DNA of 64,000 bases from an uncultured virus (IMG/VR IMGVR_UViG_3300009157_000004) (IMGVR_UViG_3300009157_000004); one strand, 5' to 3'; shown: positions 905-59,950, numbered from the stretch's first letter. Numbers and translations: made by a program. Notes: generated from the sequence alone by a model not told the origin.

Positions 905-1621
905 ATGGCAATCGTAGCTAATTTTACACCTGATGACGTAACCTGGACACATATTGGCAATTCTGCCACACTCAAATCCGGGGGTAGGCTGGAATGCAAC
1001 GACGGGCGCGCGAATTTCATTCTTAACAAGTATGGTCCGAGAGGGCTCGTCAAATTAGAGTTCTCTGAAGATCCGGATTATCTGGTCAAGCTGAAGGCCG
1101 AGGCGAAACGGCGTTATGTCGAATTCTGGCGCAGGCAGATTTACAGCTTCAACCAGTTTAACGAAACACTCAAAAACGAGAACAAGCCTTATACGCACCC
1201 GGACGATATGATGACACAGAAGGCACAGGAGTTGGGGATCAACCTCGTCGGGCCATGGAAGACTGAGAACACGAGCAATGATGTCGCGCTCAAAGCAGCC
1301 CTGGATAACAATGCCGCACTTCAGGTTCAGCTCAATAAGCTCATGGAAGCGGTGGGCAAACTCCAGGACCGGCAATCAGATGTAGAGGATCGCAGCGTAG
1401 GCGTGCCCGAGATTGATTGGAACAAAGTCAAGAACAGTTTCTTCTTCCTCAACCGGAAGGATCTGAAGAGTTACTTTTACAAACATTTCGAAATGATGAA
1501 GTCCTGGCCTGTGGATCTCAAAGACGAATTCGCCAAGAAGTACGAGAAGGCGACAGGTAAAGCGCTCAATTTTGATAATGCTCCCGAGGAGCCCAAAGAG
1601 TCAGGCAAAGATGAGGAATAA
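905..1621 (+). CDS. hypothetical protein
   Basis: 238-aa ORF, GGGGAG RBS, stop overlaps next start. Confidence 0.75.
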   Translation: MAIVANFTPDDVTWTHIGNSATLKSGGRLECNDGRANFILNKYGPRGLVKLEFSEDPDYLVKLKAEAKRRYVEFWRRQIYSFNQFNETLKNENKPYTHPDDMMTQKAQELGINLVGPWKTENTSNDVALKAALDNNAALQVQLNKLMEAVGKLQDRQSDVEDRSVGVPEIDWNKVKNSFFFLNRKDLKSYFYKHFEMMKSWPVDLKDEFAKKYEKATGKALNFDNAPEEPKESGKDEE

Positions 1622-2517
1622 TGAGTACATATTTGAACTGCCACGAGCTCCTTGCAGCGGTGAGACAGGGCCTTAACGAATACTCGACTGCCCGTCTCCA
1701 AGCCACCTCAACCAGCGGGGCGTATCTGAATGACTACCTTGTTCGCAAGATCAATGCCGCCCAAAGACAGCTCCACGCCCTGCTGTTCCGTTACATGAAA
1801 GATGACTTTCTCACCGCACCCACAGATATAACAGTAACCAGTTCAGTGATCACCTTGCCGGCAGATTTCTATATCTTAAACGAGCTTAGAGATCAGGATG
1901 GCTATAAGGTGTTTAAATCCGAGGCCCGGGATCTTCCGGTCAATAGTGGCTCCGGGGTAGAGAACTTATACTATCGGCGCGGACGGACATTCAGACTTAA
2001 TAAGAGCGGGATTACCGATACTTACAAGATCTCGTATTATTCACAGCCTCGCGAACTCACTCAGGGTGTCGCTGCCGGGACGAATACTCTTGCATCTTCA
2101 GCCAAGGCAATCGCTGACTATTATAATAACATGACACTCGAAGTCGCGAATGATGGCAGCGTGTTTACGATTTCAGATTACACTGCGGCCAGAGTCGTTA
2201 CCCCCTCTACAGGATCTCTCACCAATGCGTATTATTACGGCCTTGTCTCAGATCTTCCTGAGAACTTCCACCATCTGATCGCGCCTCGGGCAATCCAGCT
2301 TGTTAACCTCGAATTCCCAGTCGCGCAGGGGGCGCTGGTTAATGCCTCGCTCGCGCAGGTATATCTGACTGAGTGGAAAGACATGGTGGCTGATGAGCTG
2401 ATTGCGTATACCGGTAATGACGTGGATATAGACATTGAGGATATATTCGGGGATTATCAGTCTTCCGGACCTTCTCGCGGGGTTAACGTTCCCGGGCAAG
2501 GATACATGTTCAAATGA
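1621..2517 (+). CDS. putative head-tail adaptor / tail tubular protein A-like
   Basis: 298 aa; 'INAAQRQL', 'LPADF', 'LPENFHHLI' pattern typical of podoviral adaptors; lies ahead of nozzle-sized gene. Confidence 0.55.
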   Translation: MSTYLNCHELLAAVRQGLNEYSTARLQATSTSGAYLNDYLVRKINAAQRQLHALLFRYMKDDFLTAPTDITVTSSVITLPADFYILNELRDQDGYKVFKSEARDLPVNSGSGVENLYYRRGRTFRLNKSGITDTYKISYYSQPRELTQGVAAGTNTLASSAKAIADYYNNMTLEVANDGSVFTISDYTAARVVTPSTGSLTNAYYYGLVSDLPENFHHLIAPRAIQLVNLEFPVAQGALVNASLAQVYLTEWKDMVADELIAYTGNDVDIDIEDIFGDYQSSGPSRGVNVPGQGYMFK

Positions 2518-5000: not shown

Positions 5001-5182
5001 AGTCATTCAAAAGTACGGGCAAATGGACCCATCAATTTGGTAAGCCACGGAAATTACTGGATGAAAAAGGCCAGGAAATCGTAGCAAAATTAGTTCCAAA
5101 TGCTTTCTGGCAACCACCTAAACGCGGCATCGAGGATTTCAGTGAGTTTCTTAACGCAAGGAAGGCCGACAGTAAAAAATAA
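4985..5182 (+). CDS. small basic hypothetical protein
   Basis: 65-aa ORF overlapping end of previous gene and start of next. Confidence 0.45.
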   Translation: MERKIKSFKSTGKWTHQFGKPRKLLDEKGQEIVAKLVPNAFWQPPKRGIEDFSEFLNARKADSKK

Positions 5183-7478
5183 GACTTATGGCCGAAAACC
5201 GTACATCAAGGGAGATATAGGCGACTATACCGAACAGATGGGCACGGTTACGCGTAAGGCTATCGAAGACCAGCAGGAGATGCCGCGGAGTAACTTCGAT
5301 AAGCCGTATAACTCGATTGACTACCCGAACCAGGAGTATATCCAGCCGCCTGATTTTAATCCTGTGTTTCCGAATATCGATCCGTTTAAGCCTGACAAAC
5401 CCTCTTCTGATCCGATTACTTATCCGGGGGCAGAGACACCCTGCTGCGACCTTAAGTTTAAATTACCGTTTGAATGCTGTGATTCTCCGGCCCACCCTAA
5501 GCGCGAATGGGTTTATACATATGGAATAGGTCTCTCTGCATTCAATCAACTCTGCTCTACTAAATTACTGCCGGAACAGACGCGTGGGATTGAAGAGCGT
5601 TTTCTCAGATCTATCAATGTGTTCGTTAATGGATTGCGTTACAACCGGGTGCAGTATAGACCAGATGTCGATCCGATTTACCCAGTGCGAGTATATCCTC
5701 CTGAAGATCCTAATTCGCCGGGATGTTTTACCTGGAGAGATGGGGATAAGGTACACGCTCAACTTAACGGTCCTGGTAAAGGGAATGTGCTTTGCGAAGG
5801 GCCTGTATTCAGATCCAAGAGCCAGGTAGCATGTGGTTCTTGGGCAGATTCCCAATGTTGTACCTGTGATTGTGAAGCGGCAGAACAATTTCTGTTCGAT
5901 GACGCGAATACCTCGGATACTATAGTAACAGGTAGTAATATTGAGGTGTATGTTATTGGGGGTTGTCCACCTTTTGTGTTCAAAACCTCTTCAACGGGGT
6001 ATGATTTCGAAGGGATAGCAGGAAATCCGGGATACGAATCTCTGGAAGATCGACACGCTACACTTAACTGTGCAAACACTCCTTGTGAGGAAGGTACGGC
6101 TATAAACTGTGCGTTCACCGTGACTGACGCCTGCGCGACCGTAGTAAGCGGGGTTATACGGAATACCGAGGGGGCATGGAAGGCTCTGGATTGGGATTAT
6201 AATAACGTAGATATGGGGTCAACCCCTCCTACAGAACCAGGTGATACAGGTACTGGCGGCTATTCTCGCAATCTGGGGACACATTTGGGGACAGACGGGT
6301 ATCTATATGAAATGTTCTATGCACTCAGCTATTTTGGTCCGGTACAGGACATTGATCCTCAGTGCCCGGATTCGATAACAACTCTCGACGCGGCTTGTGA
6401 AGCGGGTTATTACTGCTGGCTTTTTGATAATTGGGATGAGGATTATTGTAGCGGTGGGGCCTGGCAGCAGTCTTTTCCCTGCGTAACCGCCTATCTTACA
6501 TGGTATAATCTTGTAAACGCAAACGACAATTATTTTAGCGTTGTTGCGGATAGTGCTTATCTCTGGTCGAGTATGTACTGTTGGAGAGGGGTCATAGATG
6601 ATCTGACAGGGGCAACGATGTGGAGGATAACGTCCGATGCGCTGAGAGCTGCTAATAAAAGCTATAGAATTACTGCAATGCGAAAATGGGAATGGTGGTG
6701 TGCGGCAGCGGGTAGTTCGAGCCCGAGTGCGAGTGCCAGTTCCAGCCCTAGCACAAGCCCAAGCTCCAGCCCCAGTTCGAGCCCCAGTGGGAGCAGCTCC
6801 TCCTCTCCTGAGACCTCCTATGTGGGGTCCGTGGTGAATGACGATGCCTCCAATGTAATCTGGGTTTTACCTCTGACTGGCCTGGCTGCCGATGATCTCA
6901 TGTTCACGCTGCTCTGTGTGTATAAGACTTCAGCCGCGACGATTACACCTCCGACTGGTTGGACTCTGGATGGGAGCTATACAGATAACAACGATAAGTA
7001 TTATCTATATCACAGAATAGCTACTGTAGCTGATACGGGTAAGACGGGAGAAGGAGAAGACCCGGACAATTTTTACGTATGGTCTTCTGATGCGACCAAG
7101 ATCTCAGCAACGATTGTAGCATTCAGAGATGGATTCAATACTGCTGATCCGGTAGATGCTGTTTCAAATACGGCTTATACTACAACCAATACGACTCTAA
7201 GAGCAGCAGCAATGAGCGTTACAGATGCTGGGTCTACTCTCATCTTCTTCGGGGCGGATTATGAAACAACCACAGCTATAACCTCGACAGTCCCGGCAAC
7301 GCAGGACAATGACTGGGTGGAGGATTATGATGCTGGCGCTGCCTCATCGGATTTTTACAGACACATTTATCACTGTAACTGGTCGGGGGAGGATAGCACA
7401 GGGGTAATTGATGCTACTCTGTCAGCTAACCAAGCGACTAAACATGCTTTTGCGGTTGCACTGAATAGAGAGGTTTAA
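5100..7478 (+). CDS. Cys-rich tail-associated protein with Ser/Pro linker and C-terminal beta domain
   Basis: 792-aa ORF (start uncertain); many Cys in N-terminal two thirds; SSSPSASASSSPSTSPSSSPSSSPSGSSSSSP linker; adhesin-like C-terminus. Confidence 0.6.
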   Translation: MLSGNHLNAASRISVSFLTQGRPTVKNKTYGRKPYIKGDIGDYTEQMGTVTRKAIEDQQEMPRSNFDKPYNSIDYPNQEYIQPPDFNPVFPNIDPFKPDKPSSDPITYPGAETPCCDLKFKLPFECCDSPAHPKREWVYTYGIGLSAFNQLCSTKLLPEQTRGIEERFLRSINVFVNGLRYNRVQYRPDVDPIYPVRVYPPEDPNSPGCFTWRDGDKVHAQLNGPGKGNVLCEGPVFRSKSQVACGSWADSQCCTCDCEAAEQFLFDDANTSDTIVTGSNIEVYVIGGCPPFVFKTSSTGYDFEGIAGNPGYESLEDRHATLNCANTPCEEGTAINCAFTVTDACATVVSGVIRNTEGAWKALDWDYNNVDMGSTPPTEPGDTGTGGYSRNLGTHLGTDGYLYEMFYALSYFGPVQDIDPQCPDSITTLDAACEAGYYCWLFDNWDEDYCSGGAWQQSFPCVTAYLTWYNLVNANDNYFSVVADSAYLWSSMYCWRGVIDDLTGATMWRITSDALRAANKSYRITAMRKWEWWCAAAGSSSPSASASSSPSTSPSSSPSSSPSGSSSSSPETSYVGSVVNDDASNVIWVLPLTGLAADDLMFTLLCVYKTSAATITPPTGWTLDGSYTDNNDKYYLYHRIATVADTGKTGEGEDPDNFYVWSSDATKISATIVAFRDGFNTADPVDAVSNTAYTTTNTTLRAAAMSVTDAGSTLIFFGADYETTTAITSTVPATQDNDWVEDYDAGAASSDFYRHIYHCNWSGEDSTGVIDATLSANQATKHAFAVALNREV
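6714..6809 (+). repeat. low-complexity Ser-Pro repeat (SSSP-like units)
   Basis: imperfect 12-bp units such as agttcgagccc / agctccagccc. Confidence 0.8.
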
Positions 7479-7479
7479 A

Positions 7480-8826
7480 ATGTCAGAACTGAGTATTTTA
7501 ATACCAGCCAGGAATGAGATCTTCTTACAGAAAACTGTAGAAAGTATCCTGGATAATATGAGAGGCGATACTGAGATAGTAGTTATCGGAGATGGGTATG
7601 TTCCGGATCTCAATATAGACAACCCTCGGATAAAGTACATTTTTAACGACCAGTCTATCGGCCAGCGCGCGAGTGTTAATAAGGCAGCCAGGATGATCGA
7701 TTCTCGTTATATGATGAAACTTGATGCGCATTGTTCGGTAGACGCAGGGTTCGATGTCAAGCTTATGAAAGACTGCGAACCAGATTGGACAGTAATTCCT
7801 CGTATGTATAATCTTCACGCGTTTGACTGGGAGTGCACCAAATGCGGCAATCGGATATACCAGGATGCAGCACACGATCTCTGCGCCGAATGCGGAAACC
7901 CCTCTTTTGAGCAAAAGCTGGTTTGGCTGCCCCGTTGGAAACGCAGGACAGACTATACGTATTTTGATAGAACTCTTAAGTTCAAATATTGGTATCATTT
8001 TGACAAGAGACCGAATAAAACTACAGAGCAGATATCCGATGTTATGGGAAATCTTGGGGCCTGCTGGCTAATGCGCCTGGATCGGTTTAGAGAGCTTGAA
8101 GGACTGGACGAGAAACACGGTTCCTGGGGCCAGGTTGGGGTAGAGATAAGCTGCAAGAGTTGGCTATCAGGTGGTAGGCAGGTAGTAAATAAGAATACAT
8201 GGTTTGCCCATCTATTCCGTACTACACCTAGTTTCGGTTTCCCTTATGATTTATTGGCTAAAGATCAGGAAAAGGCTAGAGTCTATTCGCGCGATCTGTG
8301 GCTGAACGATAAATGGGAGAAGCAGAAATATCCTCTCAGCTGGCTGGTAGACAAGTTCAGCCCTGTCCCGACTTGGGACCAATTAGCAACTGAGATTATC
8401 CGTGAGCCCAAATCCATCGAGAAGCTGATTCAGGCCTGGAGCCCCAAGATGCTTCAGGAAGCGCTGAACATCTCGAAACAGCTGACTAATTATGGGCGGA
8501 GTTTCAAGGATCTCGAGAAGTACGTAGAAAAGACGCGAGGGCAGATACGCAGGCAGCCGGAAGTAGAAGAGAAGCCCAAGTCGCTGAAGGATGTCCTGAA
8601 AGAAAAGAAAGCGAGTGGGCAGATAAGCTCTAAACTAAGCAGGCCCAAAGAGGTTAAAAGACTGTGTCCGGTGTGCGGCCAACCCCAGAATTTAATCGCT
8701 CTCGAACTTGGGGATAAGTTTAAGAGTATGTGGGAAGGGTGTCAGACTTGCGGGGGCCGGATTCCATGCGGTCATATTGAATACCACACTGAGACTAAAG
8801 AAGAAATAATCGATAAGATGTTCTAA
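7480..8826 (+). CDS. GT-A fold glycosyltransferase resembling polypeptide GalNAc-transferases (GT27), with CxxC inserts
   Basis: LSILIPARNE start, LDAHC (DxH) motif, WGQVGVEISCKSWLSGG...HLFR motif. Confidence 0.8.
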   Translation: MSELSILIPARNEIFLQKTVESILDNMRGDTEIVVIGDGYVPDLNIDNPRIKYIFNDQSIGQRASVNKAARMIDSRYMMKLDAHCSVDAGFDVKLMKDCEPDWTVIPRMYNLHAFDWECTKCGNRIYQDAAHDLCAECGNPSFEQKLVWLPRWKRRTDYTYFDRTLKFKYWYHFDKRPNKTTEQISDVMGNLGACWLMRLDRFRELEGLDEKHGSWGQVGVEISCKSWLSGGRQVVNKNTWFAHLFRTTPSFGFPYDLLAKDQEKARVYSRDLWLNDKWEKQKYPLSWLVDKFSPVPTWDQLATEIIREPKSIEKLIQAWSPKMLQEALNISKQLTNYGRSFKDLEKYVEKTRGQIRRQPEVEEKPKSLKDVLKEKKASGQISSKLSRPKEVKRLCPVCGQPQNLIALELGDKFKSMWEGCQTCGGRIPCGHIEYHTETKEEIIDKMF

Positions 8827-20045: not shown

Positions 20046-20720
20046 GTGAATATGAAAAGAATCTTATCTATATTATTTTTTCTTTGGATGATTTCATCAG
20101 TTTGCTTGGGTGCATCACCTGAAACAATTAATAGTGACGCTACTGTTAATATTGTAGAGGCGGCTCCAACTACTAACTATGCTACAACGAATCCGATGGA
20201 AATATCCACCTATGGGGCAGCGGATAAGAGAAATGCACTTATTAAATTTGATTTATCTGGAATAACTGGACCCGTTACGGTTTCTTCCGTTGTAATAACA
20301 TTGCAAGATTGGAATGTTTCATCTGGCACGACAGACACGATCAGGTTATATAGATGCCTGAGAAATTGGGTAGAAGGAGAAGCAACCTGGAATATCTATT
20401 CTACTGGTAATTCTTGGTCAACGGCAGGCGGGTCAGGAAGTGGAACTGACAGGGCAGCTAGTGAGTCAGCAAACTGGAATGAGACAACATCAGCCTGGTC
20501 AACTCAAACCATTTCATCTACTACTCAATTATGTTCCGATGTGCAAGATATGATTAATAATGGGTCCAATTATGGTTGGATATTCATTCAAGACTACACT
20601 GCTACACACTATCATGATTTTGCAACGGATGATGATGCGACTCCAGCCAATAGACCGACAATAGTTGTTACATACACTGCTGGGGCATCCTCAACCTCTC
20701 AAGTTATAATGGTGCAATAA
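20046..20720 (+). CDS. signal-peptide protein with DNRLRE/CBM96-like domain
   Basis: MKRILSILFFLWMISSVCLG leader; DATV...PTTNY...NALIKFDLSGI...WVEGEATWN...NYGW...RPTIVVTY pattern. Confidence 0.7.
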   Translation: MNMKRILSILFFLWMISSVCLGASPETINSDATVNIVEAAPTTNYATTNPMEISTYGAADKRNALIKFDLSGITGPVTVSSVVITLQDWNVSSGTTDTIRLYRCLRNWVEGEATWNIYSTGNSWSTAGGSGSGTDRAASESANWNETTSAWSTQTISSTTQLCSDVQDMINNGSNYGWIFIQDYTATHYHDFATDDDATPANRPTIVVTYTAGASSTSQVIMVQ

Positions 20721-22699
20721 TGAAATTAAAATTTCTCGTTATACTTTTGTATCTGTGTATCTCTTCACCTGTTTTTTCCGCTACAATATATATGGGGGCA
20801 GAAGAGACATATACAAATCTACAAGCAGCTATGGCTGAATTGGAAGCCGGTGATACTCTCATTATTAGAGATGGAACCTATATTGGATCGACCAATATGA
20901 TTTCCAATGCCTATCATCCCCCAACAGGAGCAGAAGGAAGCTGGGTTACGATACAGGCTGAACACTCTGGGTCAGTAATCTTTGACGGACAGAATACAAA
21001 CAATATGTTTTATATAGACGGGAATACAGCCGGAAATTTAAATTATCTTAAATTCTCAGGGATCATATGGGGTAGGTCTTCAAGCACTGACGTAGTGTTT
21101 ATCCAAGGTAATACTACATCAACTCATAATAGTCATATATATTTTTCTCAATGTGGTTTTTACGATGGTGGTTCGACACAAAGCACTTCTTATAATGGAT
21201 TGAATATTAGACATACAGATTATGCCTTAGTGGAAGATTGTTATGCGTGGGGAGAATTATATTACGGTATGCTTATGGAAATGGATTCATGTTCAGTTTT
21301 TAGAAGATGCGTAGTTAGGTATGATATACATCGAGGGCCTAGAGGTGGGGGTATCGGAGTTTATTCGTCTTCAGACATGGAGGTTCAAAATTGTATCGTA
21401 ATAGATTGTGATCAAGATGCTACTTATACAGGAGTAACCGAAGCTATCTATGCTTTTGCTTATCCTACAACAGATGGCCCATCTACAAATATCTATAATA
21501 GGGGTAATATTGCATTAAATTTAATTGCAGCAACCAAAATAACATCTAGCTTAATTTCAGCGAATGGTGGGGGGAGTGGATTTACATTTAATGATGTAGT
21601 TTATTGGGATACTTCTGGGGGGTTTTGGGATAGAGTTACAGCAAGTATTTATACAAACTGTATATTTGGTAAATCGGGCGGAGGTATAATTTCAGAGGGC
21701 ATAGCTGGCGGGGGGACGCTTACTAACTCCATTATTCTTGACAATACCACTTATGGGTCAAGTGTTACCGCCTCAAATTACAATGTGTATTATGGGAATG
21801 GAACTGATTTCCACAATACAAGTGATGGAGATCATGATTATTGTGCGGCGAATAGCAACGCTTTTGACCCTGAAACTAATGGTCTTAAATATCTTATCCG
21901 GATAGAGCCGGGATCAACACTTTCGACAGCAGGATCAGGCAGCGGCAGATTGGGGCCAAGGATCTTATATCAGATAGGAGCCACAGGTACATTTTATGGA
22001 GAAACAGGATATAACACAGAAAGTGCTATATCCTTATGGCCTTTTCCTAATGAAGATATTATTAAGGTTAAATTTGCGTCTTACGCCGGTAATACAAATG
22101 GAGAAATAACAGGCTTGAGGGGTTTTGCAGCCACGGGTAAGCAATTAAATGGAACTGATGATATTACCCTTACCTCTTACATTTGGGAATATCTTGGGAA
22201 TCAGATGCCGAGTGATATTTATAACCCCTATTGTACCCTCTCTGGCACACTCGCTACGGGAGCAGATGAGGAAGATATCTATAACGGTGGAGGGACAATA
22301 ATCCTCACGTTGACAGGAGATACTTGGGTTGCTGATGACGGAACTTTTGCTGCTCAAAGACAGAATATAATAGATAGCATAACATCAGTAACCTCAGAAG
22401 CGACAGGATGGAACGCAGAGGTTCGAGATAAAGCTGCCGTTACAGAACTGGTTAGGACTAGCGATACGGTGGCAACATGGACAGTAGGAGCACAAATAGG
22501 TTTTGACATTGAAGCCACAGACGGCCCAATAACCGCTAAACCCCCTGCGACAGCTTTAATGGGTGCAGAAGAACTCACGGCATCCCCGACATTCTCAATC
22601 GGGGCCACAGTAGTTGGGACAGGTATAGCAGCCACATATTCAGCCGGTGGAAGTGCTGCTGTTTATGGAGCAGGTGGAATAACGTTAGTCGGCCCTTAA
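20720..22699 (+). CDS. signal-peptide right-handed beta-helix protein (pectate-lyase-like fold)
   Basis: MKLKFLVILLYLCISSPVFSA leader; LQAAMAELEAGDTLIIRDGTY cap and parallel beta-helix repeats. Confidence 0.7.
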   Translation: MKLKFLVILLYLCISSPVFSATIYMGAEETYTNLQAAMAELEAGDTLIIRDGTYIGSTNMISNAYHPPTGAEGSWVTIQAEHSGSVIFDGQNTNNMFYIDGNTAGNLNYLKFSGIIWGRSSSTDVVFIQGNTTSTHNSHIYFSQCGFYDGGSTQSTSYNGLNIRHTDYALVEDCYAWGELYYGMLMEMDSCSVFRRCVVRYDIHRGPRGGGIGVYSSSDMEVQNCIVIDCDQDATYTGVTEAIYAFAYPTTDGPSTNIYNRGNIALNLIAATKITSSLISANGGGSGFTFNDVVYWDTSGGFWDRVTASIYTNCIFGKSGGGIISEGIAGGGTLTNSIILDNTTYGSSVTASNYNVYYGNGTDFHNTSDGDHDYCAANSNAFDPETNGLKYLIRIEPGSTLSTAGSGSGRLGPRILYQIGATGTFYGETGYNTESAISLWPFPNEDIIKVKFASYAGNTNGEITGLRGFAATGKQLNGTDDITLTSYIWEYLGNQMPSDIYNPYCTLSGTLATGADEEDIYNGGGTIILTLTGDTWVADDGTFAAQRQNIIDSITSVTSEATGWNAEVRDKAAVTELVRTSDTVATWTVGAQIGFDIEATDGPITAKPPATALMGAEELTASPTFSIGATVVGTGIAATYSAGGSAAVYGAGGITLVGP

Positions 22700-27335: not shown

Positions 27336-27776
27336 ATGAAACGGTGTGAACCGAGTTTAGCTCTACCCACTATAGATCTATGGGTTAAGAACTATTTTAT
27401 ACCCAGATTCAAATTGGACTGCCAGTGTAAGATCTCTCAGAGTGCTCTCGATAATCTGACAGCTTGGCATTATTATGAGAAACTCTATGATCAGCTGTAT
27501 GAACATCTTATATTCCATTTCGAAACTTCCTTAGCAGGTAACACCACACAGCAATATTTTTATGATCACGTACACGTTCCTGCAACAGCTTGGCAACATT
27601 TTAAACGCGATTATCTGCCGATCTGGTTCAGCAACCTCTTCCCCGTACGAACAAAAGAGATTGTTTGCAAAACCGAGATTATCAATAATTGGATTTGTCC
27701 GCATATCTCTCTGCCAGAAAAGGATGAAGCTCATTTTAGATTTATCGAATCGAAAGGAGGACTTAATGACAACTAA
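27336..27776 (+). CDS. hypothetical protein
   Basis: 146 aa, AGGAGG RBS. Confidence 0.7.
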   Translation: MKRCEPSLALPTIDLWVKNYFIPRFKLDCQCKISQSALDNLTAWHYYEKLYDQLYEHLIFHFETSLAGNTTQQYFYDHVHVPATAWQHFKRDYLPIWFSNLFPVRTKEIVCKTEIINNWICPHISLPEKDEAHFRFIESKGGLNDN

Positions 27777-30297
27777 ATGGACAGCTGACAGTGCGCTTGC
27801 CGCATTCGAGCAATTCGTTGCAAACTACGGTTATCTCAGTGCAAACAATTATGACAAGATAGGCAAGGGTAAATGCGTAGGGTACCCTAATGGACTACCC
27901 TGCCGGCAAGTGCTTCTCACACTCACAGGTAAGACTTGGGTTGATCTAATGGGTGATGCGCCGCAGCCTGCCGCAGATACGCAGGAATATTCTAAGGATT
28001 CACTGGTACGACAGAACAAACAGTTGATGTCCCGGCTCCAGTCACACGAGGAGGCACTCAAACTATTCATCGATAACTGTTCTGCCGAGATAGCCAAGAT
28101 GAAAATCAAACCGGTAAGCATACCGAAGAATCTGCATAGCCGGGAGAACCTGGAGATGCACGGGATGCGCTCAGACGATCACGTGGGGGCCAAGATTACC
28201 CCCCAGTCCACTCAAGGTTTGGGCGGCTACGACGCAGCCACGTATAAGAAGCGGCTCAACCGCTGGGTAGAGAAGGTGCTCACGTTCAAAGAGCAGGACA
28301 GTTCTCCGCTCGGGCTCAATAAACTCGTTCTGTATTATTTGGGTGACATAGTAACAGGAGAGAATATTTACAAGGGGCAATCTTACGCGCTGGATCTGTT
28401 TCTTACAGAGCAGTTATTCTATGCGCTGGAGCTGAATACTAACGTCATCCTGGGCCTTGCCGGAATCTTCAACAGCGTTGAGATCTTCTGTTGCCCCCCT
28501 GAGACACAGATTAAGATGAGCGATCTGAATACCAAAAATATAGCTGATATCCAAAATGGGGACGAAGTTCTTACGCATACCGGAAAGAAGAAGAAAGTTA
28601 CAAAAATAATGTCGCGTCAAGTTTCTGGTAATTCTCTCGTCGAGTTGATGTTTGAGGGCATTTATGATTACCCTCTTCGAGTTACACCTGAGCACCCAAT
28701 TCTCGCCATAAAACGTAACAGTCTTGCCTGTAAGATCGAAAACTGGAAAAAAAGAGATGCAGTATGTTGGCTTAAACCTGAAGATAAAAAATCTTATTAT
28801 CCCTGTAAGAACTGTAAAGAACGGCGAGGTGAGGTTATCCCCCAGTTCTATCCCGCTTCAGAATTAGTAGAAGGGGATTATCTAGCTGTGCCTGTTCAAC
28901 AAGAGTTTGACTTCGATTCTAAATTTGAGGTTATTGATCTATACGATTATCTCGGTACGCGGATTACCAAGGAATTAAAAGGTAGAGTTGGACTCTGGCA
29001 TACACATACAGATAAAATGTTGCCTAGAATTATACCTCTTACCCCAGACTTTATGCGGCTTTTGGGGTATTTTCTAGCGGAGGGGCACCTTATAAGCGGC
29101 AGGGAAAATCGTGTGGGTATCTGTTTCACCTTCAATCAGAAAGAAGAAAATTATCTTTTAGATATTGAAGATATCTTGAAACGTGAATTAGGTTTGTCTT
29201 CTTATCGAATTTACAAACCCGCTTCGCACGTTACGCAACTTATGGTAGGCAGTAACGTGCTTGCGGAGTTATTCGAAATACTTTGTGGGTCTGGTGCGGG
29301 AAATAAACGTTTGCACTCAAAATTGACTTCTTTGCGACCCGCATTATTATTGGAAACTGTTAGAGGATGGTTTTATGGAGACGGGTGCTTTGGGAAGGGG
29401 TCAGAAGGTGACACTCTTGTAGGCGTAACTATATCTAAAACCCTAAAAGAACAACTAGTAACAATTCTTATCAATAACAAAATACCAGTTTCAGTTTCTT
29501 ACCGGAAAGCTGTTAGCAACGTTCGGAATCAGACTCTAAAAAGTATTACCTATCACTCTAAAGCCTACACTCTCGGAGTTTTCGGTAGTTTTATTAATCT
29601 TATCCATAAGGGATTCAGTTCTCAACTTGATAGCCGAAGCCGGATAAAATATTATGATAAGTATCTCTTCACGGAGCTAAAAACTAAAACCGAAGTGGAG
29701 TATTCTGGCCCTGTCTATAATTTTACTGTAGAGGATGACGAGAGTTATATTGCAAATAATATTGCAGTCCACAATTGTGCGATAGGCAATCATGGCCGGC
29801 CTGGAGCGAAGGGCGAGAACCATTACCTGACCAATTTCGACTATCTGCTGTACCGAATGCTTCAGATGTCGCTCCGGTCGCAGGAGAACGTCAAGGTATT
29901 CGTCAGTGAATCGCCTGAGATGCTGGTGCGCAACGGGGACTTTAACTTTCACTTGTCCCACGGCGAGAAGGTAATGAGCTATTCGGGTACGCCTTATTAT
30001 GGCCTGGATAGAAAGTACCGTAAGCTCGCGAATCTATACAACATGATCGTTAATTATCAGCTTATCGGGCACTTCCATTCCCCTGCCCAGCTCAGTGAGC
30101 ATATACTTATTAATGGGAGTCTGGTGGGAGGGGATGACTTGAGTATCAACCGGATGTCGCAGTCCACCGTGCCCAGCCAGAAGATCTTCTATATGCATCC
30201 GAAGCACGGGATTAACCGGGTCAGTGATCTGTACTTAGATACGATGCCGATACTGACACCGGATCTGGATGGGATCTATACACCAAATATTAAGTGA
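27766..30297 (+). CDS. calcineurin-like metallophosphoesterase precursor containing an intein
   Basis: SDDHVG, LGDIVTGE, GNHGR, SHGE, GHFH motifs; AGGAGG RBS favours ATG 27766 over 27562. Confidence 0.85.
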   Translation: MTTKWTADSALAAFEQFVANYGYLSANNYDKIGKGKCVGYPNGLPCRQVLLTLTGKTWVDLMGDAPQPAADTQEYSKDSLVRQNKQLMSRLQSHEEALKLFIDNCSAEIAKMKIKPVSIPKNLHSRENLEMHGMRSDDHVGAKITPQSTQGLGGYDAATYKKRLNRWVEKVLTFKEQDSSPLGLNKLVLYYLGDIVTGENIYKGQSYALDLFLTEQLFYALELNTNVILGLAGIFNSVEIFCCPPETQIKMSDLNTKNIADIQNGDEVLTHTGKKKKVTKIMSRQVSGNSLVELMFEGIYDYPLRVTPEHPILAIKRNSLACKIENWKKRDAVCWLKPEDKKSYYPCKNCKERRGEVIPQFYPASELVEGDYLAVPVQQEFDFDSKFEVIDLYDYLGTRITKELKGRVGLWHTHTDKMLPRIIPLTPDFMRLLGYFLAEGHLISGRENRVGICFTFNQKEENYLLDIEDILKRELGLSSYRIYKPASHVTQLMVGSNVLAELFEILCGSGAGNKRLHSKLTSLRPALLLETVRGWFYGDGCFGKGSEGDTLVGVTISKTLKEQLVTILINNKIPVSVSYRKAVSNVRNQTLKSITYHSKAYTLGVFGSFINLIHKGFSSQLDSRSRIKYYDKYLFTELKTKTEVEYSGPVYNFTVEDDESYIANNIAVHNCAIGNHGRPGAKGENHYLTNFDYLLYRMLQMSLRSQENVKVFVSESPEMLVRNGDFNFHLSHGEKVMSYSGTPYYGLDRKYRKLANLYNMIVNYQLIGHFHSPAQLSEHILINGSLVGGDDLSINRMSQSTVPSQKIFYMHPKHGINRVSDLYLDTMPILTPDLDGIYTPNIK
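28489..29775 (+). mobile_element. intein with LAGLIDADG homing endonuclease (429 aa)
   Basis: starts CCPPETQI, block B TPEHP, LLGYFLAEG and RGWFYGDG motifs, ends VYNFTVEDDESYIANNIAVHN followed by Cys; visibly AT-richer than flanks. Confidence 0.92.
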
Positions 30298-34920: not shown

Positions 34921-35060
34921 GAGACGGATTGTACCAAGTAACCTATAAAGGAATCTGCGCAGCTTTTGTGCTAAAGACCGATAGAGTCATACGCTGTGCA
35001 CCTATTCTATACAGTCGCTTAAGTTTCTGGAAAACTATTGCGAGGTTTGTAACAGAATGA
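34917..35060 (+). CDS. small hypothetical protein (47 aa)
   Basis: GTG start, RDGLYQVTYKGICAAFV...CAPILY...; overlaps both neighbours by 4 nt. Confidence 0.55.
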   Translation: MRDGLYQVTYKGICAAFVLKTDRVIRCAPILYSRLSFWKTIARFVTE

Positions 35061-35383
35061 GGATCTACTTAGCCGGACCATTCTACCACAAGTGCCCTGC
35101 GATAATGGAGATGCGGTTCTTGATGCTTAATTATAAAGCAGGAGAGCTGATCCGCGATGGCCATATCGTGTTCAGCCCTATCAGTCATTCATGGCCTATA
35201 CAGAAAGAGGGGTTGACGGAGCACACGCATGAGGTATGGCTGAAGCAGGACTACGCATTCATCGAGTGGTGCGATGAGCTGTGGGTACTCGATCTGCCAG
35301 GGTGGGAGGAATCATTCGGCGTAAGTAGAGAAGTAGAGTATGCAACTTCTCTCCACAAACCTGCTCAGTTAATAGGGTTCTAA
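35057..35383 (+). CDS. nucleoside deoxyribosyltransferase-like protein (DUF1937/DUF4406 type)
   Basis: IYLAGPF...FSPISHS...CDELWVL..PGWEESFGVSREV. Confidence 0.75.
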   Translation: MRIYLAGPFYHKCPAIMEMRFLMLNYKAGELIRDGHIVFSPISHSWPIQKEGLTEHTHEVWLKQDYAFIEWCDELWVLDLPGWEESFGVSREVEYATSLHKPAQLIGF

Positions 35384-35384
35384 T

Positions 35385-35870
35385 ATGGAAACTACAATTT
35401 ACGAATTCCAAGGCTTATACCGCTATTTATCTAATTTCTACCCTTTGCGTTTTCCTATAACAGATGAGTATGGAATAAGCTATCCAACAGTCGAACATGC
35501 TTTTCAAGCCGCTAAAACTCTTGATAGAGGCCGTCGCGCAGACATCTCCAATAGAAAAACGCCTTCGGAGGCAAAGAAGCTGGGTCGGACTCTGAGTTTA
35601 CGCCCCGATTGGGAAGACGTTAAAGTAGAACTTATGTATGGGTTTCTCACACAGAAATTTGTCCTGAATGAAGATCTTCGAATTAAGTTGTGTGCTACAG
35701 GTTCAGCGCAACTGATAGAAGGTAATACATGGGGGGATAGATTCTGGGGGATCTGCAACGGTACAGGTTTGAATATACTGGGGGAATGCTTAATGGCTAT
35801 ACGAGAGGGGTTTAGATATGGAACAACTCGTCGCCGATATAGTCGAGAAGATCTACGGCTCTCAAAATAA
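35385..35870 (+). CDS. NADAR (YbiA-like) family protein
   Basis: LSNFY...YPTVEHAFQAAK...AKKLGR...LIEGNTWGDRFWG...NILGECLM. Confidence 0.9.
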   Translation: METTIYEFQGLYRYLSNFYPLRFPITDEYGISYPTVEHAFQAAKTLDRGRRADISNRKTPSEAKKLGRTLSLRPDWEDVKVELMYGFLTQKFVLNEDLRIKLCATGSAQLIEGNTWGDRFWGICNGTGLNILGECLMAIREGFRYGTTRRRYSREDLRLSK

Positions 35871-46601: not shown

Positions 46602-49175
46602 CTAATCGTCCTCCCCTTTCATTAATCCCCACACCGTCCCTTCCTTAAAATCCACCGGCGTTGGGATTCCAATATTGGTGGTTGTTTCCATAACGCTTTT
46701 TGTCACCAGATTGCAAAAAACAACGTGTTGTTCTGGTATCTCATTAAGAAGTGCGTCGTGAATCTGGATCAAAGAGCGTATGTCAATCCCTTCGCTGCGT
46801 AACTGTCTATAAATTGGTGTCAGTTTGCCCATTGCTAACTTAATAATCCCTTGCGCGGAGGCCTGGATAGGCTGGTTCTGTGCCTGCCTGAGTGCGTCCA
46901 TTACTACCCACTTATTCGGGCTGTATACGCCCGGTGTCAGTTTAATCCTCCCAAACATATCTCTGACATAACCGTGTCTCCTGGCATAAGCATGGATCTC
47001 CGCAATATAATCCCGCACTCTGCTGAACCGGTCGAACCAGGCCTTGATCAGATCCTCGCACGCGGTTAGGGTCCATGTACTCGGATCGGCACCATCTTTG
47101 ATCAGGGTCTCCATCAGTCCCTGTGCTTCCGTACCGTAGGGAATTCCGAAGTTAACCCTCTTACAAGGCAACCGGTGCTTATACTTATCAATCTGAGATT
47201 CAGGTAATCCGAACACTTCACAGGCTGTCATTGTGTGAATATCCTTGCCATCCGTGAACGTCTTAATCATCGAAGGTTCATTCGCCATTTTTGCTAGAAG
47301 TCTAAGTTCTATCTGCGAATAGTCTCCCTCAACTAGCACATACCCCTCTTCCGCAACAAATCCCTCCCGCATCTTCCGGCCCTCTTCATCCTGGTTAGGC
47401 ACTGCCATCAGGTTAGGCTCTGCGGTCGATAGCCGGCCCGTGTCTGCGCGCGTGACCTTAATCTTAGGGTGGATACGCCCATCTGCCGCGATTCGATTGG
47501 GCATAGGCCCTGAGTACGTGTTAATCAGTTTATCATACCCTCGCCAATCCCTAATCACCTCAATAACCGGATGCGTCCCCTGCAACATCGCGAGTACCTT
47601 ATCATCTGCCTGCTCCAGCCCTGTCTTCGTAAACTTTACTGCTTTCAGGCCCAGGTCCTCGAATAACAACTTGCGCACCTGTTGATGACTCCCTAATTGC
47701 ACATCCCGGTCTGTCAACTCGTACACTTTCTTCTGTAACAATTCTTTCTTAGTATTGTAATATTCTGTTAGAGATCGGAACTTGTCCGGGTCTGCCTTGA
47801 TCCCATGCTCCATCATGCCCATAACCATAGGGAGTATACTAACATCCATCCAGAATACGTCTTCAAGCTCTAATTCGTGTATTCTGGGCCACAGGTACTC
47901 GTAGACTGCCAATGTCATCTCAGCGTCTTGGCAGGCGTACTTAAGCGCGTCCTCGAAGGGGATATCACACAGTTCGCCATCAGGCATCAGCCCGAACTTA
48001 GCCTCCGCGATCCCTCTGCCCTCGTTTGGGTCTATGTTCAGCCAGCGTTCGCGTAATTCGATATCCGGACTCTTTGAATAATCGCTTAAGATCCTGGTCG
48101 CTTTTTTATTAATCGGCCAGGGGTTCTTGACCTTCCAGACACCTTTGGCTTGATAGGGTATCGCTTCGGGCTTAGGCCAGGATTCAGAGGCGATAAGACA
48201 TAAGTAATCCAGTGCTTTCTGCTGCCGGGCTGGGCGGATTGTCTCCTCGTAACTGAACATCCGACGGCCAGTAACCCGGTACGCCAAGGCCTTGAGGCCC
48301 TGCGGCTCGTCCTGGAGCAGATAGGCGAGAATCATAGTATCCACTATCTTATCCGGGATCAGCCCCATATCCTTCAGCACAGGTAGATCGTAGAGTGCAT
48401 TATGCAACAGGACCGTAATGTTGTTCGTACGGATATAGTTGTCCAACTGGGCAATAAGCGGGTTATCTGCCAATAAGAAATATGCCTTGCCGTGTTCCCA
48501 GCACGCGGTCAGGTTCCAGCCCTTCCCCCTGGCCCATTCAGTATCTATTGCAATCACTTTCGGCGGCTGTTCAGGAAACGTGAACGTGTGTGCTTCGTAT
48601 ACAGGCGTCGAAGTATCCCAGTAAATCGCTGGTTTAGGCTTAACCTGGCCATACATAATCTTGACTACCTGCTTATAATCGTTCTGGCATAGGGCCATTA
48701 TCTCAGGGCGGTGTAATCCTGCCGCTGGGTGATAACAGGGGATAATCGTCCGGCCATTGATCTTGTAGCCGATACCGTGGCAGAGTTCCATGTCCAGGTC
48801 CGGGATAAACTTATGTGTGGCCAAGGCACCCAGGCAGACGATGATCGAGGGATCTACTAGTCGGATCTCCTCGTTCAGCCAGTATGAGCATGCTTTCACG
48901 CATTCCTCATCCGGGTCCTCATCATCGGGCACCCTGCACTTAACTATATTCGTGGTATAGGTATCTTTGCGGTTCAGCCCGTTGCGCCGTAGATATGCTG
49001 TGTGCTCTTCCCCAGCTTTAGCTTTCTCGACAAAGGGCCTGCCTGTGCTGTCTTCCCACTTCCCAGGGCCTTCGCCAATAAACATAATCCCGGCGTCTTC
49101 GGGGCCTTCACCCCATACTATCTTACGCCGGGATTTGGATAATTTACAAAGATTGCATGTGTTTGCGAGTTTCAT
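46602..49175 (-). CDS. polA: family A DNA polymerase with N-terminal family-4 uracil-DNA glycosylase domain
   Basis: CNLC/GEGPG/TNIVKC/YHPAA (UDG4); IDTEW, HNALYD, YACQD (3'-5' exo); TGRLS, DYSQIELR, KRVNFGIPYG, QIHD (PolA). Confidence 0.93.
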   Translation of the reverse strand: MKLANTCNLCKLSKSRRKIVWGEGPEDAGIMFIGEGPGKWEDSTGRPFVEKAKAGEEHTAYLRRNGLNRKDTYTTNIVKCRVPDDEDPDEECVKACSYWLNEEIRLVDPSIIVCLGALATHKFIPDLDMELCHGIGYKINGRTIIPCYHPAAGLHRPEIMALCQNDYKQVVKIMYGQVKPKPAIYWDTSTPVYEAHTFTFPEQPPKVIAIDTEWARGKGWNLTACWEHGKAYFLLADNPLIAQLDNYIRTNNITVLLHNALYDLPVLKDMGLIPDKIVDTMILAYLLQDEPQGLKALAYRVTGRRMFSYEETIRPARQQKALDYLCLIASESWPKPEAIPYQAKGVWKVKNPWPINKKATRILSDYSKSPDIELRERWLNIDPNEGRGIAEAKFGLMPDGELCDIPFEDALKYACQDAEMTLAVYEYLWPRIHELELEDVFWMDVSILPMVMGMMEHGIKADPDKFRSLTEYYNTKKELLQKKVYELTDRDVQLGSHQQVRKLLFEDLGLKAVKFTKTGLEQADDKVLAMLQGTHPVIEVIRDWRGYDKLINTYSGPMPNRIAADGRIHPKIKVTRADTGRLSTAEPNLMAVPNQDEEGRKMREGFVAEEGYVLVEGDYSQIELRLLAKMANEPSMIKTFTDGKDIHTMTACEVFGLPESQIDKYKHRLPCKRVNFGIPYGTEAQGLMETLIKDGADPSTWTLTACEDLIKAWFDRFSRVRDYIAEIHAYARRHGYVRDMFGRIKLTPGVYSPNKWVVMDALRQAQNQPIQASAQGIIKLAMGKLTPIYRQLRSEGIDIRSLIQIHDALLNEIPEQHVVFCNLVTKSVMETTTNIGIPTPVDFKEGTVWGLMKGEDD

Positions 49176-54454: not shown

Positions 54455-55102
54455 ATGTTAGAAGAGAAAAAAGTGCAATTTTTGCACTTATACGTTCGCA
54501 ATCTAAGTGTCAGAGCGTCCGCCCTTGCGGTAAATGTCGCGGAGTCTACAGCATGGGAATGGATGAAACATCCTGATATTGTTAAGTTATTAGAAGATTA
54601 TGCGGCAGTGCAGAATTCGCGGACAACTATTAACGTAGACAAGCTGGTGAAAGAGATTGCTATCCTGGCAAGTAGTGATGTCATGGATTATTTCGACTCA
54701 CATAAGGGGATATTGACGTTTAAAGACCTCAAGAGTCTGCCGCCGGAGATGACGCGTTGTATTAAATCGGTTGAAGAAACCGTGTCGCCCCAAGGCCAGG
54801 TCAAGCTTAAGATCCAGGTCCATGACAAGCTGGAGGCCATTGAACGGCTAACTAAGGTATTCGGGCTGGAGATGGAACGTGTGTTACTCGTCGATTCGAA
54901 CAACCAGGCGCTAGGCGTGGTAGGTACCGGCCAGCAGCAGGCGGCCCTCCCACCTGTCAATTCAATAGAAGACTGGGAAGCGCAGGTGCAGAGCGCGCGC
55001 AGGTCCCGGGATTCATTGCCCGGATTAAGCGCCCCTTTATCTCCGCCACGCACCCCGGATTCAGCGCCCACCAGCGCCCAGGTAATCGACATTGACCCCT
55101 AA
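54455..55102 (+). CDS. terS: terminase small subunit
   Basis: N-terminal HTH; IAILASSDVMDYF...IKSVEET...KLKIQVHDKLEAIERL. Confidence 0.8.
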   Translation: MLEEKKVQFLHLYVRNLSVRASALAVNVAESTAWEWMKHPDIVKLLEDYAAVQNSRTTINVDKLVKEIAILASSDVMDYFDSHKGILTFKDLKSLPPEMTRCIKSVEETVSPQGQVKLKIQVHDKLEAIERLTKVFGLEMERVLLVDSNNQALGVVGTGQQQAALPPVNSIEDWEAQVQSARRSRDSLPGLSAPLSPPRTPDSAPTSAQVIDIDP

Positions 55103-59685: not shown

Positions 59686-59936
59686 CAGGAGAGATCAATA
59701 CCCCTAAAGAAACCCCCCCTAATGCGCCGTCTCGCCAGGAGCCCCTCAATATCAGTTTTATTGTCTTACCTGATGGCCGGCTCTCCTGTTCAACCAACAT
59801 GGACTATCTGACTTTCTGTTCAGTTATGCTCGACGGATGGCGTACTATAATGAACGGGATGCTCCAGCAGGCAGCCAAGCCGCCCTCGATAATCATACCT
59901 CAAATGGACGTGTCCAAGATAAAACTGGCACATTAA
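59682..59936 (+). CDS. hypothetical protein
   Basis: 84 aa, overlaps previous stop. Confidence 0.55.
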   Translation: MTGEINTPKETPPNAPSRQEPLNISFIVLPDGRLSCSTNMDYLTFCSVMLDGWRTIMNGMLQQAAKPPSIIIPQMDVSKIKLAH

Positions 59937-59950
59937 GGAGAATTTACCAC

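Follow-up and report, generated by a model that had tools for sequence, protein, structure and literature searches.

The question raised by the locus described here is whether a phage encodes, directly beside one of its own tail proteins, the enzyme which adds sugar to that protein. The locus forms part of a stretch of DNA of 64,000 nucleotides from an uncultured virus (IMG/VR IMGVR_UViG_3300009157_000004), which was analysed as a whole and is referred to below as the window, and it consists of two open reading frames (ORFs) on the plus strand, viz. a tail-region gene for a 792-aa protein (P0002) and a gene for a 448-aa glycosyltransferase (P0001), both of which start with ATG (the coordinates of these and all other features are collected in Table 1). 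In a preliminary description of this DNA the glycosyltransferase had been likened to the eukaryotic polypeptide N-acetylgalactosaminyltransferases (GalNAc-transferases or GalNAc-Ts) of the family GT27, and a Ser/Pro linker in the tail protein had been suggested as its substrate. We consider as the best reading, and as a fairly probable one, that the enzyme would initiate, in the cytoplasm and prior to virion assembly, the O-glycosylation of the serine tract carried by the tail protein encoded next to it. The pair of ORFs and their spacing were found to be as described earlier: the transferase gene, which is flanked by tail-region genes, begins 1 nt beyond the stop codon of the candidate acceptor gene and a Shine-Dalgarno-like site precedes its start. 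Genes that are coupled in translation are arranged in this way, and the two genes are probably so coupled; a terminator scan revealed no terminator-like site between them. In the promoter and terminator scans, the number of promoter- and terminator-like sites was not above that seen in shuffled sequence. The minus-strand ORFs in this region are short and nested inside the long plus-strand frames, and they were therefore treated as spurious.

The identity of the enzyme is considered first. The translation of P0001 contains the motifs LDAHC (residues 81-85), WGQVGVEISCKSWLSGG (216-232) and HLFR (244-247), as well as a CxxC..CxxC insert and the C-terminal cysteines C396, C399, C421 and C424, in agreement with what had been reported earlier. 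In a Pfam scan at E<=0.01, P0001 matched PF00535 (Glycos_transf_2) alone, over aa 5-103 only (E 4.2e-10, 40.2 bits versus a cut-off of 23.3), and neither PF02709 nor any lectin family. The PF00535 model is generic for GT-A enzymes and the region matched corresponds to their nucleotide-binding half. The PHROGs collection has no family for P0001 or P0002 and NCBIfam gave none above its cut-offs. However, among sequences of proteins in the PDB, 12 of the 23 matches of P0001 at E<=1 were GalNAc-Ts (best E 0.009), the others being zinc-ribbon proteins aligning to the insert or to the C-terminal tail. When a profile of 23 family members was compared with the same sequences, 14 of the 17 matches at E<=0.01 were GalNAc-Ts (best 1.2e-9, GalNAc-T1), and these run through the Gal/GalNAc-T motif region, whereas the remaining 3 of the 17 cover only the N-terminal nucleotide-binding half. 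The residues D82, H84, W216, G217, E222, W228, G231, G232, H244, F246 and R247 are invariant in the 23 family members and they align with LDAHC, WGGENLEISFRIWQCGG and GHVFR of GalNAc-T1, although the middle of the Gal/GalNAc-T motif differs, reading WGQVGVE here versus WGGENLE in GalNAc-T1. According to the accessible part of one paper, the replacement of DxD by DxH is confined to the families GT27 and GT60, both of which are polypeptide Ser/Thr O-glycosyltransferases (PMC7185993).

The same relationship is seen at the level of structure. The AlphaFold model of P0001 has a mean predicted local distance difference test score (pLDDT) of 74, which is mostly >90 over aa 1-300 and <50 for most of aa 302-448. 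A comparison of GT27 with GT2 had been proposed in the preliminary description as a check on the enzyme's identity, and the best structural matches proved to be the GT27 polypeptide GalNAc-transferases and not lipid or polysaccharide GT2 enzymes. Among the matches listed in a Foldseek comparison with the PDB (29 entries, ranks 1-49), all were polypeptide GalNAc-transferases, with E values ranging from 7.1e-16 (GalNAc-T2) to 6.8e-13. In a VIA-align comparison with 48,161 chains, GalNAc-T1 gave Z 27.4 (271 aa, 2.9 Å) and the Toxoplasma GalNAc-T3 Z 25.4, and the next folds after GT27 were WrtF (Z 18.8), AvpGT (18.7), the chondroitin polymerase K4CP (18.4) and SpsA (18.3). The sequence identity of P0001 to the GalNAc-Ts is 14-20%. 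Further, P0001 has no hydrophobic segment (maximum Kyte-Doolittle value for a 19-mer 0.67), and therefore it should act in the cytoplasm; its first beta-strand starts from residue 4. P0001 is a soluble GT-A glycosyltransferase, and its family is the nearest prokaryotic or viral look-alike known of the eukaryotic GT27 enzymes; the motifs indicate a metal-dependent enzyme in which D82, H84 and H244 are the predicted metal ligands. As P0001 has neither the ricin lectin domain nor the membrane anchor of GT27, it was called GT27-like in this work and not classed as a member of that family. The CxxC..CxxC insert, which lies after the DxH strand, is real and family-wide, its four cysteines (C119, C122, C135 and C138) being nearly invariant (>=90% conserved) in the 23-sequence alignment; its rubredoxin-like and L37e-like matches are weak.

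The candidate acceptor, P0002, showed no match in Pfam, PHROGs or the sequences of the PDB. Its N-terminal domain is 32-35% identical (BLASTP) to four shorter proteins (P0273-P0276), and the residues W532 and C534, which are invariant in these homologues, are located at their C-termini and lie directly before the position of the linker in P0002. An ESM Atlas structure search with this domain gave nothing usable, all template modelling (TM) scores being <0.5. The Ser/Pro linker itself was confirmed at the position given for it earlier. Residues 537-576 (40 residues) include 23 Ser and 6 Pro, and the best 20-residue window of the protein, with 19 S/P/T residues, is above chance, as 1000 shuffles of its sequence gave at most 16 and on average 10.6. 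In the best 20-residue window of the tract, 10 of 10 alternate positions are S or T, and the 792-aa ORF is the sole gene-sized ORF in the 64-kb window that has such an alternating-serine pattern.

If the enzyme acts on tracts of this kind, then the two are expected to occur together in other genomes, and such an association had been proposed as a further check. A first, looser S/P/T criterion passed 12 of 80 control loci, mostly due to high-GC antisense frames and PT linkers, and it was replaced by a strict motif, viz. a 20-residue window with S or T at >=8 of 10 alternate positions and >=2 Pro at the other positions. The loci examined were the best 80 of at least 583 viral loci and the best 80 of 229 loci from metagenome-assembled genomes (MAGs), and they are related to each other. 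An alternating-Ser/Pro ORF was present in 56 of the 80 viral enzyme loci versus 1 of 80 random viral loci (Fisher p 2e-22), the single match in the latter being a high-GC artefact, and in 42 of the 80 MAG enzyme loci. The 56 viral loci contain 88 repeat ORFs and all 88 are on the same strand as the enzyme. The repeat ORF was found in 55 of the 65 loci with >=6 kb on each side and for 51 of 67 enzyme clusters (70% identity); the nearest one is at a median distance of 714 bp, and 66 loci have it downstream of the enzyme and 20 upstream of it, while in 12 the two overlap.

The association was also seen in the reverse direction. A pattern for repeat-encoding DNA drew 79 loci, of which 13 (on 12 contigs) were confirmed as repeat ORFs, and the enzyme was encoded within 10 kb in 6 of these 13 (5 of the 12 contigs), whereas it was found in none of the 66 pattern loci lacking a repeat ORF and in none of the 80 random loci (0/146 together). 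However, as 66 of the 79 pattern loci are chance matches, the reverse test is small. Among the confirmed loci lacking the enzyme, the records for two (L340 and L318) are estimated to be 38% and 13% complete, and three others contain plain (SP)n tracts and not SxSxSP (L306, L356 and L324, in the last of which a serine run follows). The co-occurrence predicted earlier is thus strong in both directions. Of the 88 repeat ORFs, 54 were scanned against Pfam and 12 of these had a match to a globular domain; the families, some of them matched below Pfam's own cut-off, are unrelated and tail-type, viz. Gly_rich_2 (3), Laminin_G_3 (2), Beta_helix, Phage-tail_3, SPP1_Dit, GDSL/CE2, Disaggregatase-related, DUF1349 and Ig. 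The repeats therefore represent a portable element and not one gene family inherited with the enzyme. The possibility that the transferases themselves bear serine tracts was rejected, as this was seen, marginally, in 1 of 171 enzyme ORFs. At some enzyme loci (L019/L065, 3-1658; L012, 9551-10087), Thr/Pro-rich mucin-like tracts (TTTTSTTPVPTTTGPTTTTTPAPTTTTT) are present, which are of another repeat type than SxSxSP.

The tract of P0002 is followed by a C-terminal module, for which an AlphaFold2 model was obtained with pLDDT 82 and a predicted TM score of 0.85. Its best structural match, which is borderline, is the receptor-binding protein head of the lactococcal phage Tuc2009 (VIA-align Z 8.8 over 105 residues), followed by TNF/C1q-like folds and other phage fibre tips; the Foldseek matches are to double jelly-rolls and are weak (E 2.8e-4, TM 0.29). 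That this module is a receptor-binding head is a guess from the model. The module is 41-45% identical to modules in two viral contigs (L400 and L401), where long SxSxSP arrays are present on both sides of it. In L400, which is a complete genome, transferase genes are located immediately before and after the module-bearing fibre gene, and L401, whose record is 98% complete, contains two homologues near its other end.

Information regarding how this arrangement came about is provided by a near relative of the phage, the 14-kb viral contig L406. The 828-aa protein of the window has a counterpart of 834 aa there, with 70% identity, the 266-aa protein of L406 shows 74% identity over 121 residues with the 245-aa protein of the window, and the gene following this pair, which encodes a 458-aa protein in the window, has a homologue in L406 as well. 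However, the tail protein of L406 is 568 aa long and consists of the N-terminal domain followed by a stop, without linker or module, and in the 13.5 kb of L406 searched there is neither a transferase nor an alternating-serine ORF. As the linker, the module and the enzyme are lacking there together, these three differ from L406 as one block of ~1.7 kb. The two ends of the block make two in-frame fusions, one to the tail protein and the other to a zinc-ribbon ORF, and its GC content of 0.474 differs little from the 0.492 and 0.497 of the flanks. In L406, a 137-aa zinc-ribbon ORF (L406:11718-12128) directly follows the tail protein gene, and aa 311-436 of P0001 are homologous to it (BLASTP E 3e-12, 29% identity); the zinc ribbon of P0001 is thus a fused neighbour gene. 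In the preliminary description this zinc ribbon was viewed as standing in place of the lectin domain of GT27. This interpretation is replaced by a different one: the homology indicates that the tail was once a small ORF of its own in this phage lineage and is now fused to the catalytic domain. An ESM Atlas structure search with the C-terminal tail gave no usable match (TM scores all <0.5). The short-linker form, the zinc-ribbon fusion and the synteny comparison are new here.

The enzyme belongs to a large family, with >3133 matching proteins (90% clusters) at E<=0.001; in a set of 50% representatives there are 1035 matches at this threshold and 264 at E<=1e-30. The best 120 members show 45-63% identity over the catalytic domain. 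Relatives are encoded on at least 583 viral contigs and at 229 MAG loci (species-representative genomes), the viral count coming from an alignment-based scan, as a scan with the single protein found just one partial relative. The 80 genome loci kept are all from metagenome bins, with labels including Patescibacteria groups, Planctomycetota, Anaerolineales, 'Gammaproteobacteria', DPANN archaea, Thermoplasmatota and others, and tblastn against 50,697 GenBank phage records gave zero matches to the enzyme. The sole near-identical copy of P0001 on record is P0003. Many members carry additional domains, viz. extra GT2 domains and sugar-methyltransferase-type domains (Methyltransf_24 or CmcI-type), which fits with the building of a glycan in several steps. 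About half of the close homologues (P0018, P0030, P0088 and others) have a conserved second domain of ~230 aa with the motif CEHDxLYHPSHF (alignment columns ~400-730), which has no Pfam match and is possibly a second, undescribed transferase-like domain. In one member, P0135 (774 aa), a GIY-YIG/NUMOD3 homing-endonuclease module is either fused to the protein or inserted into it. In large MAG contigs (viz. L241, a 455-kb contig labelled Parcubacteria, L215, L226 and L263), the enzyme family occurs within glycosylation islands with extra GT2 genes, several Methyltransf_24 genes, RmlD and an RGP-type mutase; serine-repeat proteins are present in the islands of L241, L226 and L263, and none was found in the L215 DNA examined. 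The L263 island resembles a prophage (integrase, PG-binding, collagen repeat), while in that of L241 TatC and domains of the surface Ig and dockerin types are present and phage hallmarks are absent within 8 kb. Due to these surroundings in L241, the system of enzyme and repeat may also be used for surface proteins of ultra-small bacteria.

According to the reading which we favour, P0001 would take a nucleotide sugar of the host as donor and attach the first sugar to the hydroxyl groups of serines within the (S-x-S-P)n tracts of freshly synthesised virion proteins, prior to their assembly. In the phage of the window, the target would be the linker of 32-40 residues in the 792-aa protein, its sole tract of this kind, which carries the beta-sandwich module that is possibly a receptor-binding head; glycosylation would be expected to stiffen and extend the linker and to shield it from proteases. 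The difference in the block comprising the linker, module and catalytic domain would have left the enzyme joined to a zinc-ribbon protein of the tail cluster. A more far-reaching interpretation, which we regard as tentative and rather doubtful, is that the family is a prokaryotic-virus sister of GT27/GT60, that the tract, module and enzyme form a travelling glyco-cassette, and that mucin-like fibres are common; an existing tail protein could then acquire, in a single recombination event, a stalk that is sugar-coated and resistant to proteases and bears a new receptor-binding head.

Several observations weigh against the favoured reading. The fold, motifs, solubility, gene linkage and synteny difference were computed here, and from these we infer the acceptor, the timing and the effect; every functional step is thus reasoned from the genes. 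In the DNA fetched, 24 of the 80 viral and 38 of the 80 MAG loci have no repeat ORF, nor do 10 of the 65 well-flanked loci. The loci compared are the best-scoring ones, not random, and are mutually related, and the control loci are random phage DNA and not matched tail modules; therefore the contrast between them may partly reflect the residence of the enzyme in tail-gene clusters. The synteny comparison involves one relative, as further scans with the tail protein alignment and the 828-aa protein gave one contig only, and hence both a gain here and a loss in L406 are possible. The affinities of the enzyme to GT27 and GT60 cannot be separated because no GT60 structure was among the matches. 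The tract here is ~32-40 aa long, whereas those in relatives have a median length of 208 aa and reach up to 1363 residues, and a short tract like this could be a simple flexible linker. Further, four of the six module homologues (P0278-P0281) are fibre-like proteins in which the module is N-terminal and serine repeats are lacking, and therefore the module is not tied to the repeats.

The last two observations are also what one would expect if P0001 were a protein O-glycosyltransferase with some other phage or host protein as its target, the linker being a flexible tether inherited with the module, and the role of the linker as acceptor is in any case a proposal drawn from sequence. We nevertheless consider this unlikely, as no second gene-sized ORF with such a tract is present in the 64-kb window, the genes are separated by 1 nt and a Shine-Dalgarno-like site is present at their junction, and in L400 the module is flanked by long repeats and transferase genes are found on both sides. 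It is quite unlikely, too, that the acceptor is not a protein, i.e. that a glycan or lipid of the host envelope (e.g. in a block to superinfection) or the phage DNA is modified, and that the enzyme merely resides among tail genes, in clusters of which serine-rich fibre proteins are simply common. Such an acceptor would agree with the generic GT2 family given by Pfam, with the linkage controls not being matched for tail modules, with the Z values of 15-19 reached by other GT-A enzymes in VIA-align, and with the existence of phage transferases acting on DNA or on the serotype of the host, as described in the accessible part of one paper (PMC12619734). However, GT27 is 7-8 Z units above the polysaccharide and lipid GT-A enzymes, the DxH motif is confined to the protein O-glycosyltransferases of GT27 and GT60 in what could be consulted of PMC7185993, and P0001 has no membrane segment for a lipid-linked acceptor. 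Further, the enzyme is present in 5 of the 12 contigs selected by their repeats versus 0 of 146 other loci, L406, which is without the linker, is also without the enzyme, and a general Pfam scan of 45 window ORFs turned up no gene of a hydroxymethyl-pyrimidine pathway. The enzyme could, lastly, be a decaying passenger, brought in with the module by recombination, accidentally fused to the zinc ribbon and now inactive or irrelevant. Its chimeric nature with a formerly separate ORF, the single near-identical copy on record (P0003) and the poorly modelled C-terminal part would be in accordance with this, but its 448 codons are open, all residues invariant in the 23-sequence alignment, metal ligands included, are retained, the catalytic domain is modelled at pLDDT >90, and the start is well positioned after the Shine-Dalgarno-like site; we consider such decay to be very improbable.

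The genome setting is in accordance with a tail locus. Judged from its gene content the 64-kb window is the genome of a tailed phage, and the placement of the two genes in the tail region, as proposed earlier, is upheld because an SU10-type adaptor, two genes after which the 792-aa tail gene is found, a P22-like portal, a small terminase and a polyvalent internal protein of 2352 aa were all identified in the window. The last of these contains an ADP-ribosyltransferase domain (ART-PolyVal) and LPD23, and genes for proteins with a NADAR domain and with DUF1937 are located elsewhere in the phage; this combination could be a writer/eraser pair for ADP-ribosylation. Other observations in the window concern a 911-aa ORF with Hint/intein splicing and LAGLIDADG homing-endonuclease matches in the middle of the protein, indicative of an intein-bearing phage gene; a family A DNA polymerase with an N-terminal domain of the uracil-DNA glycosylase superfamily and a 3'-5' exonuclease; and a CBM96/disaggregatase-repeat protein next to a right-handed beta-helix protein, which from their domains look like candidates for a tailspike or depolymerase.

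Table 1. Positions of the features of the glycosyltransferase/tail protein locus and of other genes in the 64,000-nt window
Feature	Position	Strand	Remarks
P0002, 792-aa tail-region protein	5100..7478	+	Cys-rich conserved N-terminal domain, Ser/Pro linker, C-terminal beta-sandwich module
N-terminal domain, aa 1-534	5100..6701	+	common to four homologues of 436-574 aa ending at the same point
Block of ~1.7 kb: linker, module, transferase catalytic domain	~6708..8407	+	absent from the syntenic L406 site; inferred
Ser/Pro tract SSSPSASASSSPSTSPSSSPSSSPSGSSSSSP, aa 539-570	6714..6809	+	candidate O-glycosylation acceptor
C-terminal module, aa 571-792	6810..7475	+	two beta-jelly-roll subdomains (AlphaFold2 model)
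Gene junction	7468..7482	+	GAGAGG 7468-7473 (Shine-Dalgarno-like), stop TAA 7476-7478, base 7479, ATG 7480
P0001, 448-aa glycosyltransferase	7480..8826	+	Pfam PF00535 match and translation
GT27-like GT-A catalytic domain, aa 1-300	7480..8379	+	D82-x-H84, W216...G232, H244-x-F-R247
CxxC..CxxC zinc-ribbon-like insert, aa 117-141	7828..7902	+	inside the catalytic domain; C119, C122, C135, C138
C-terminal tail, aa 311-448	8410..8823	+	helical stretch and Cys4 zinc ribbon; homologous to the stand-alone 137-aa ORF of L406
SU10-type adaptor	1621-2517		
Polyvalent internal protein, 2352 aa	10964-18022	+	ART-PolyVal, LPD23
CBM96/disaggregatase-repeat and beta-helix proteins	20046-22699	+	
911-aa ORF	27562-30297	+	Hint/intein, LAGLIDADG
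NADAR domain and DUF1937 proteins	35057-35870	+	
Family A DNA polymerase	46602-49175	-	
Small terminase	54455-55102		
P22-like portal	59837-62032		

If the favoured reading is correct, then a large protein family would mark sugar-coated tail fibres in uncultured phages, with consequences for the recognition of hosts, for environmental particle stability and for ideas about how the machinery for protein O-glycosylation arose, and it would provide soluble, bacterially expressible enzymes for the synthesis of mucin-like glycopeptides. The locus described here offers a small and tractable pair of enzyme and acceptor, viz. a 300-aa domain and a 32-residue tract, and the comparison with L406 is a natural experiment which points to the enzyme and acceptor moving as one unit. 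Should the more far-reaching view of a travelling cassette hold, mucin-like glycoprotein fibres would be common, and so far unrecognised, in uncultured phages and ultra-small bacteria. To our knowledge, the initiation of mucin-type glycosylation by GT27-like enzymes is regarded as eukaryotic, and within the literature accessible to us virion glycosylation of phages is documented for mycobacteriophages only. In a search of the literature, which did not extend to most subscription journals, we came across no report of a GT27-like enzyme in phages or of such an enzyme being paired with Ser/Pro repeats.

Of the known systems, GT27 is considered first. The enzyme shares with this family (examples being PDB 8v9q, 1xhb, 2ffu, 6egs and 8uhv) the GT-A catalytic domain, for which GT27 is the best structural match, the DxH metal motif, the W-G-x4-E-x-S-x3-W-x2-G-G motif, the C-terminal His in HxFR and, by analogy, the predicted acceptor Ser beside Pro. 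The GalNAc-Ts favour Pro at +1 and +3, and SxSP supplies both. However, in P0001 the ricin-type (CBM13) lectin domain is absent and the homologue of the zinc-ribbon ORF (aa 311-436) is found instead, there is no type II membrane anchor and no action in a secretory pathway, a zinc-ribbon insert follows the DxH strand, and the family is encoded by phages and MAGs. With GT60, the polypeptide alpha-GlcNAc-transferases of protists (Dictyostelium, Trypanosoma), P0001 shares the same DxH motif, as far as can be seen from the accessible text (PMC7185993). In the Pfam scan (E<=0.01, PF00535 only), however, P0001 showed no match to a GT60 family model, and BFVD phage proteins labelled 'Glycosyltransferase, GlcNAc' match it (E 6e-12 and weaker) less than the GT27 structures do. 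For the GT60 family model we take the Pfam family 'GlcNAc' (PF11397).

Glycosylation of virions by phage-encoded transferases is best compared with that in mycobacteriophages, where, according to the accessible part of one paper, such enzymes decorate the phage's own virion proteins and the subunits of the capsid and the tail tube carry the glycans at their C-termini (PMC12619734). The location of the transferase gene in or next to structural genes is common to both, but the candidate acceptor here is an internal linker (aa 539-570 of 792), or long fibre arrays in relatives, and the enzyme family is unmatched in the GenBank phage records searched, which should include the sequenced mycobacteriophages. 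The candidate acceptor may in turn be compared with the serine-rich repeat glycoproteins of Gram-positive bacteria (Fap1, GspB and SraP), which in the accessible descriptions have long tracts with every second residue a serine and receive their O-glycans in the cytoplasm from dedicated transferases whose genes are nearby. In these bacteria initiation is carried out by the GT-B pair GtfA/GtfB and export by the accessory Sec system; in the Pfam scan of the 45 window ORFs (>=100 aa), no GT-B and no SecA2/SecY2 family turned up. The alternating-serine repeat is thus the feature which the two systems have in common, whereas the system described here is distinguished by a GT27-like GT-A enzyme as candidate initiator, by the regular occurrence of Pro in the repeats and by the presence of these repeats in proteins that are parts of virions.

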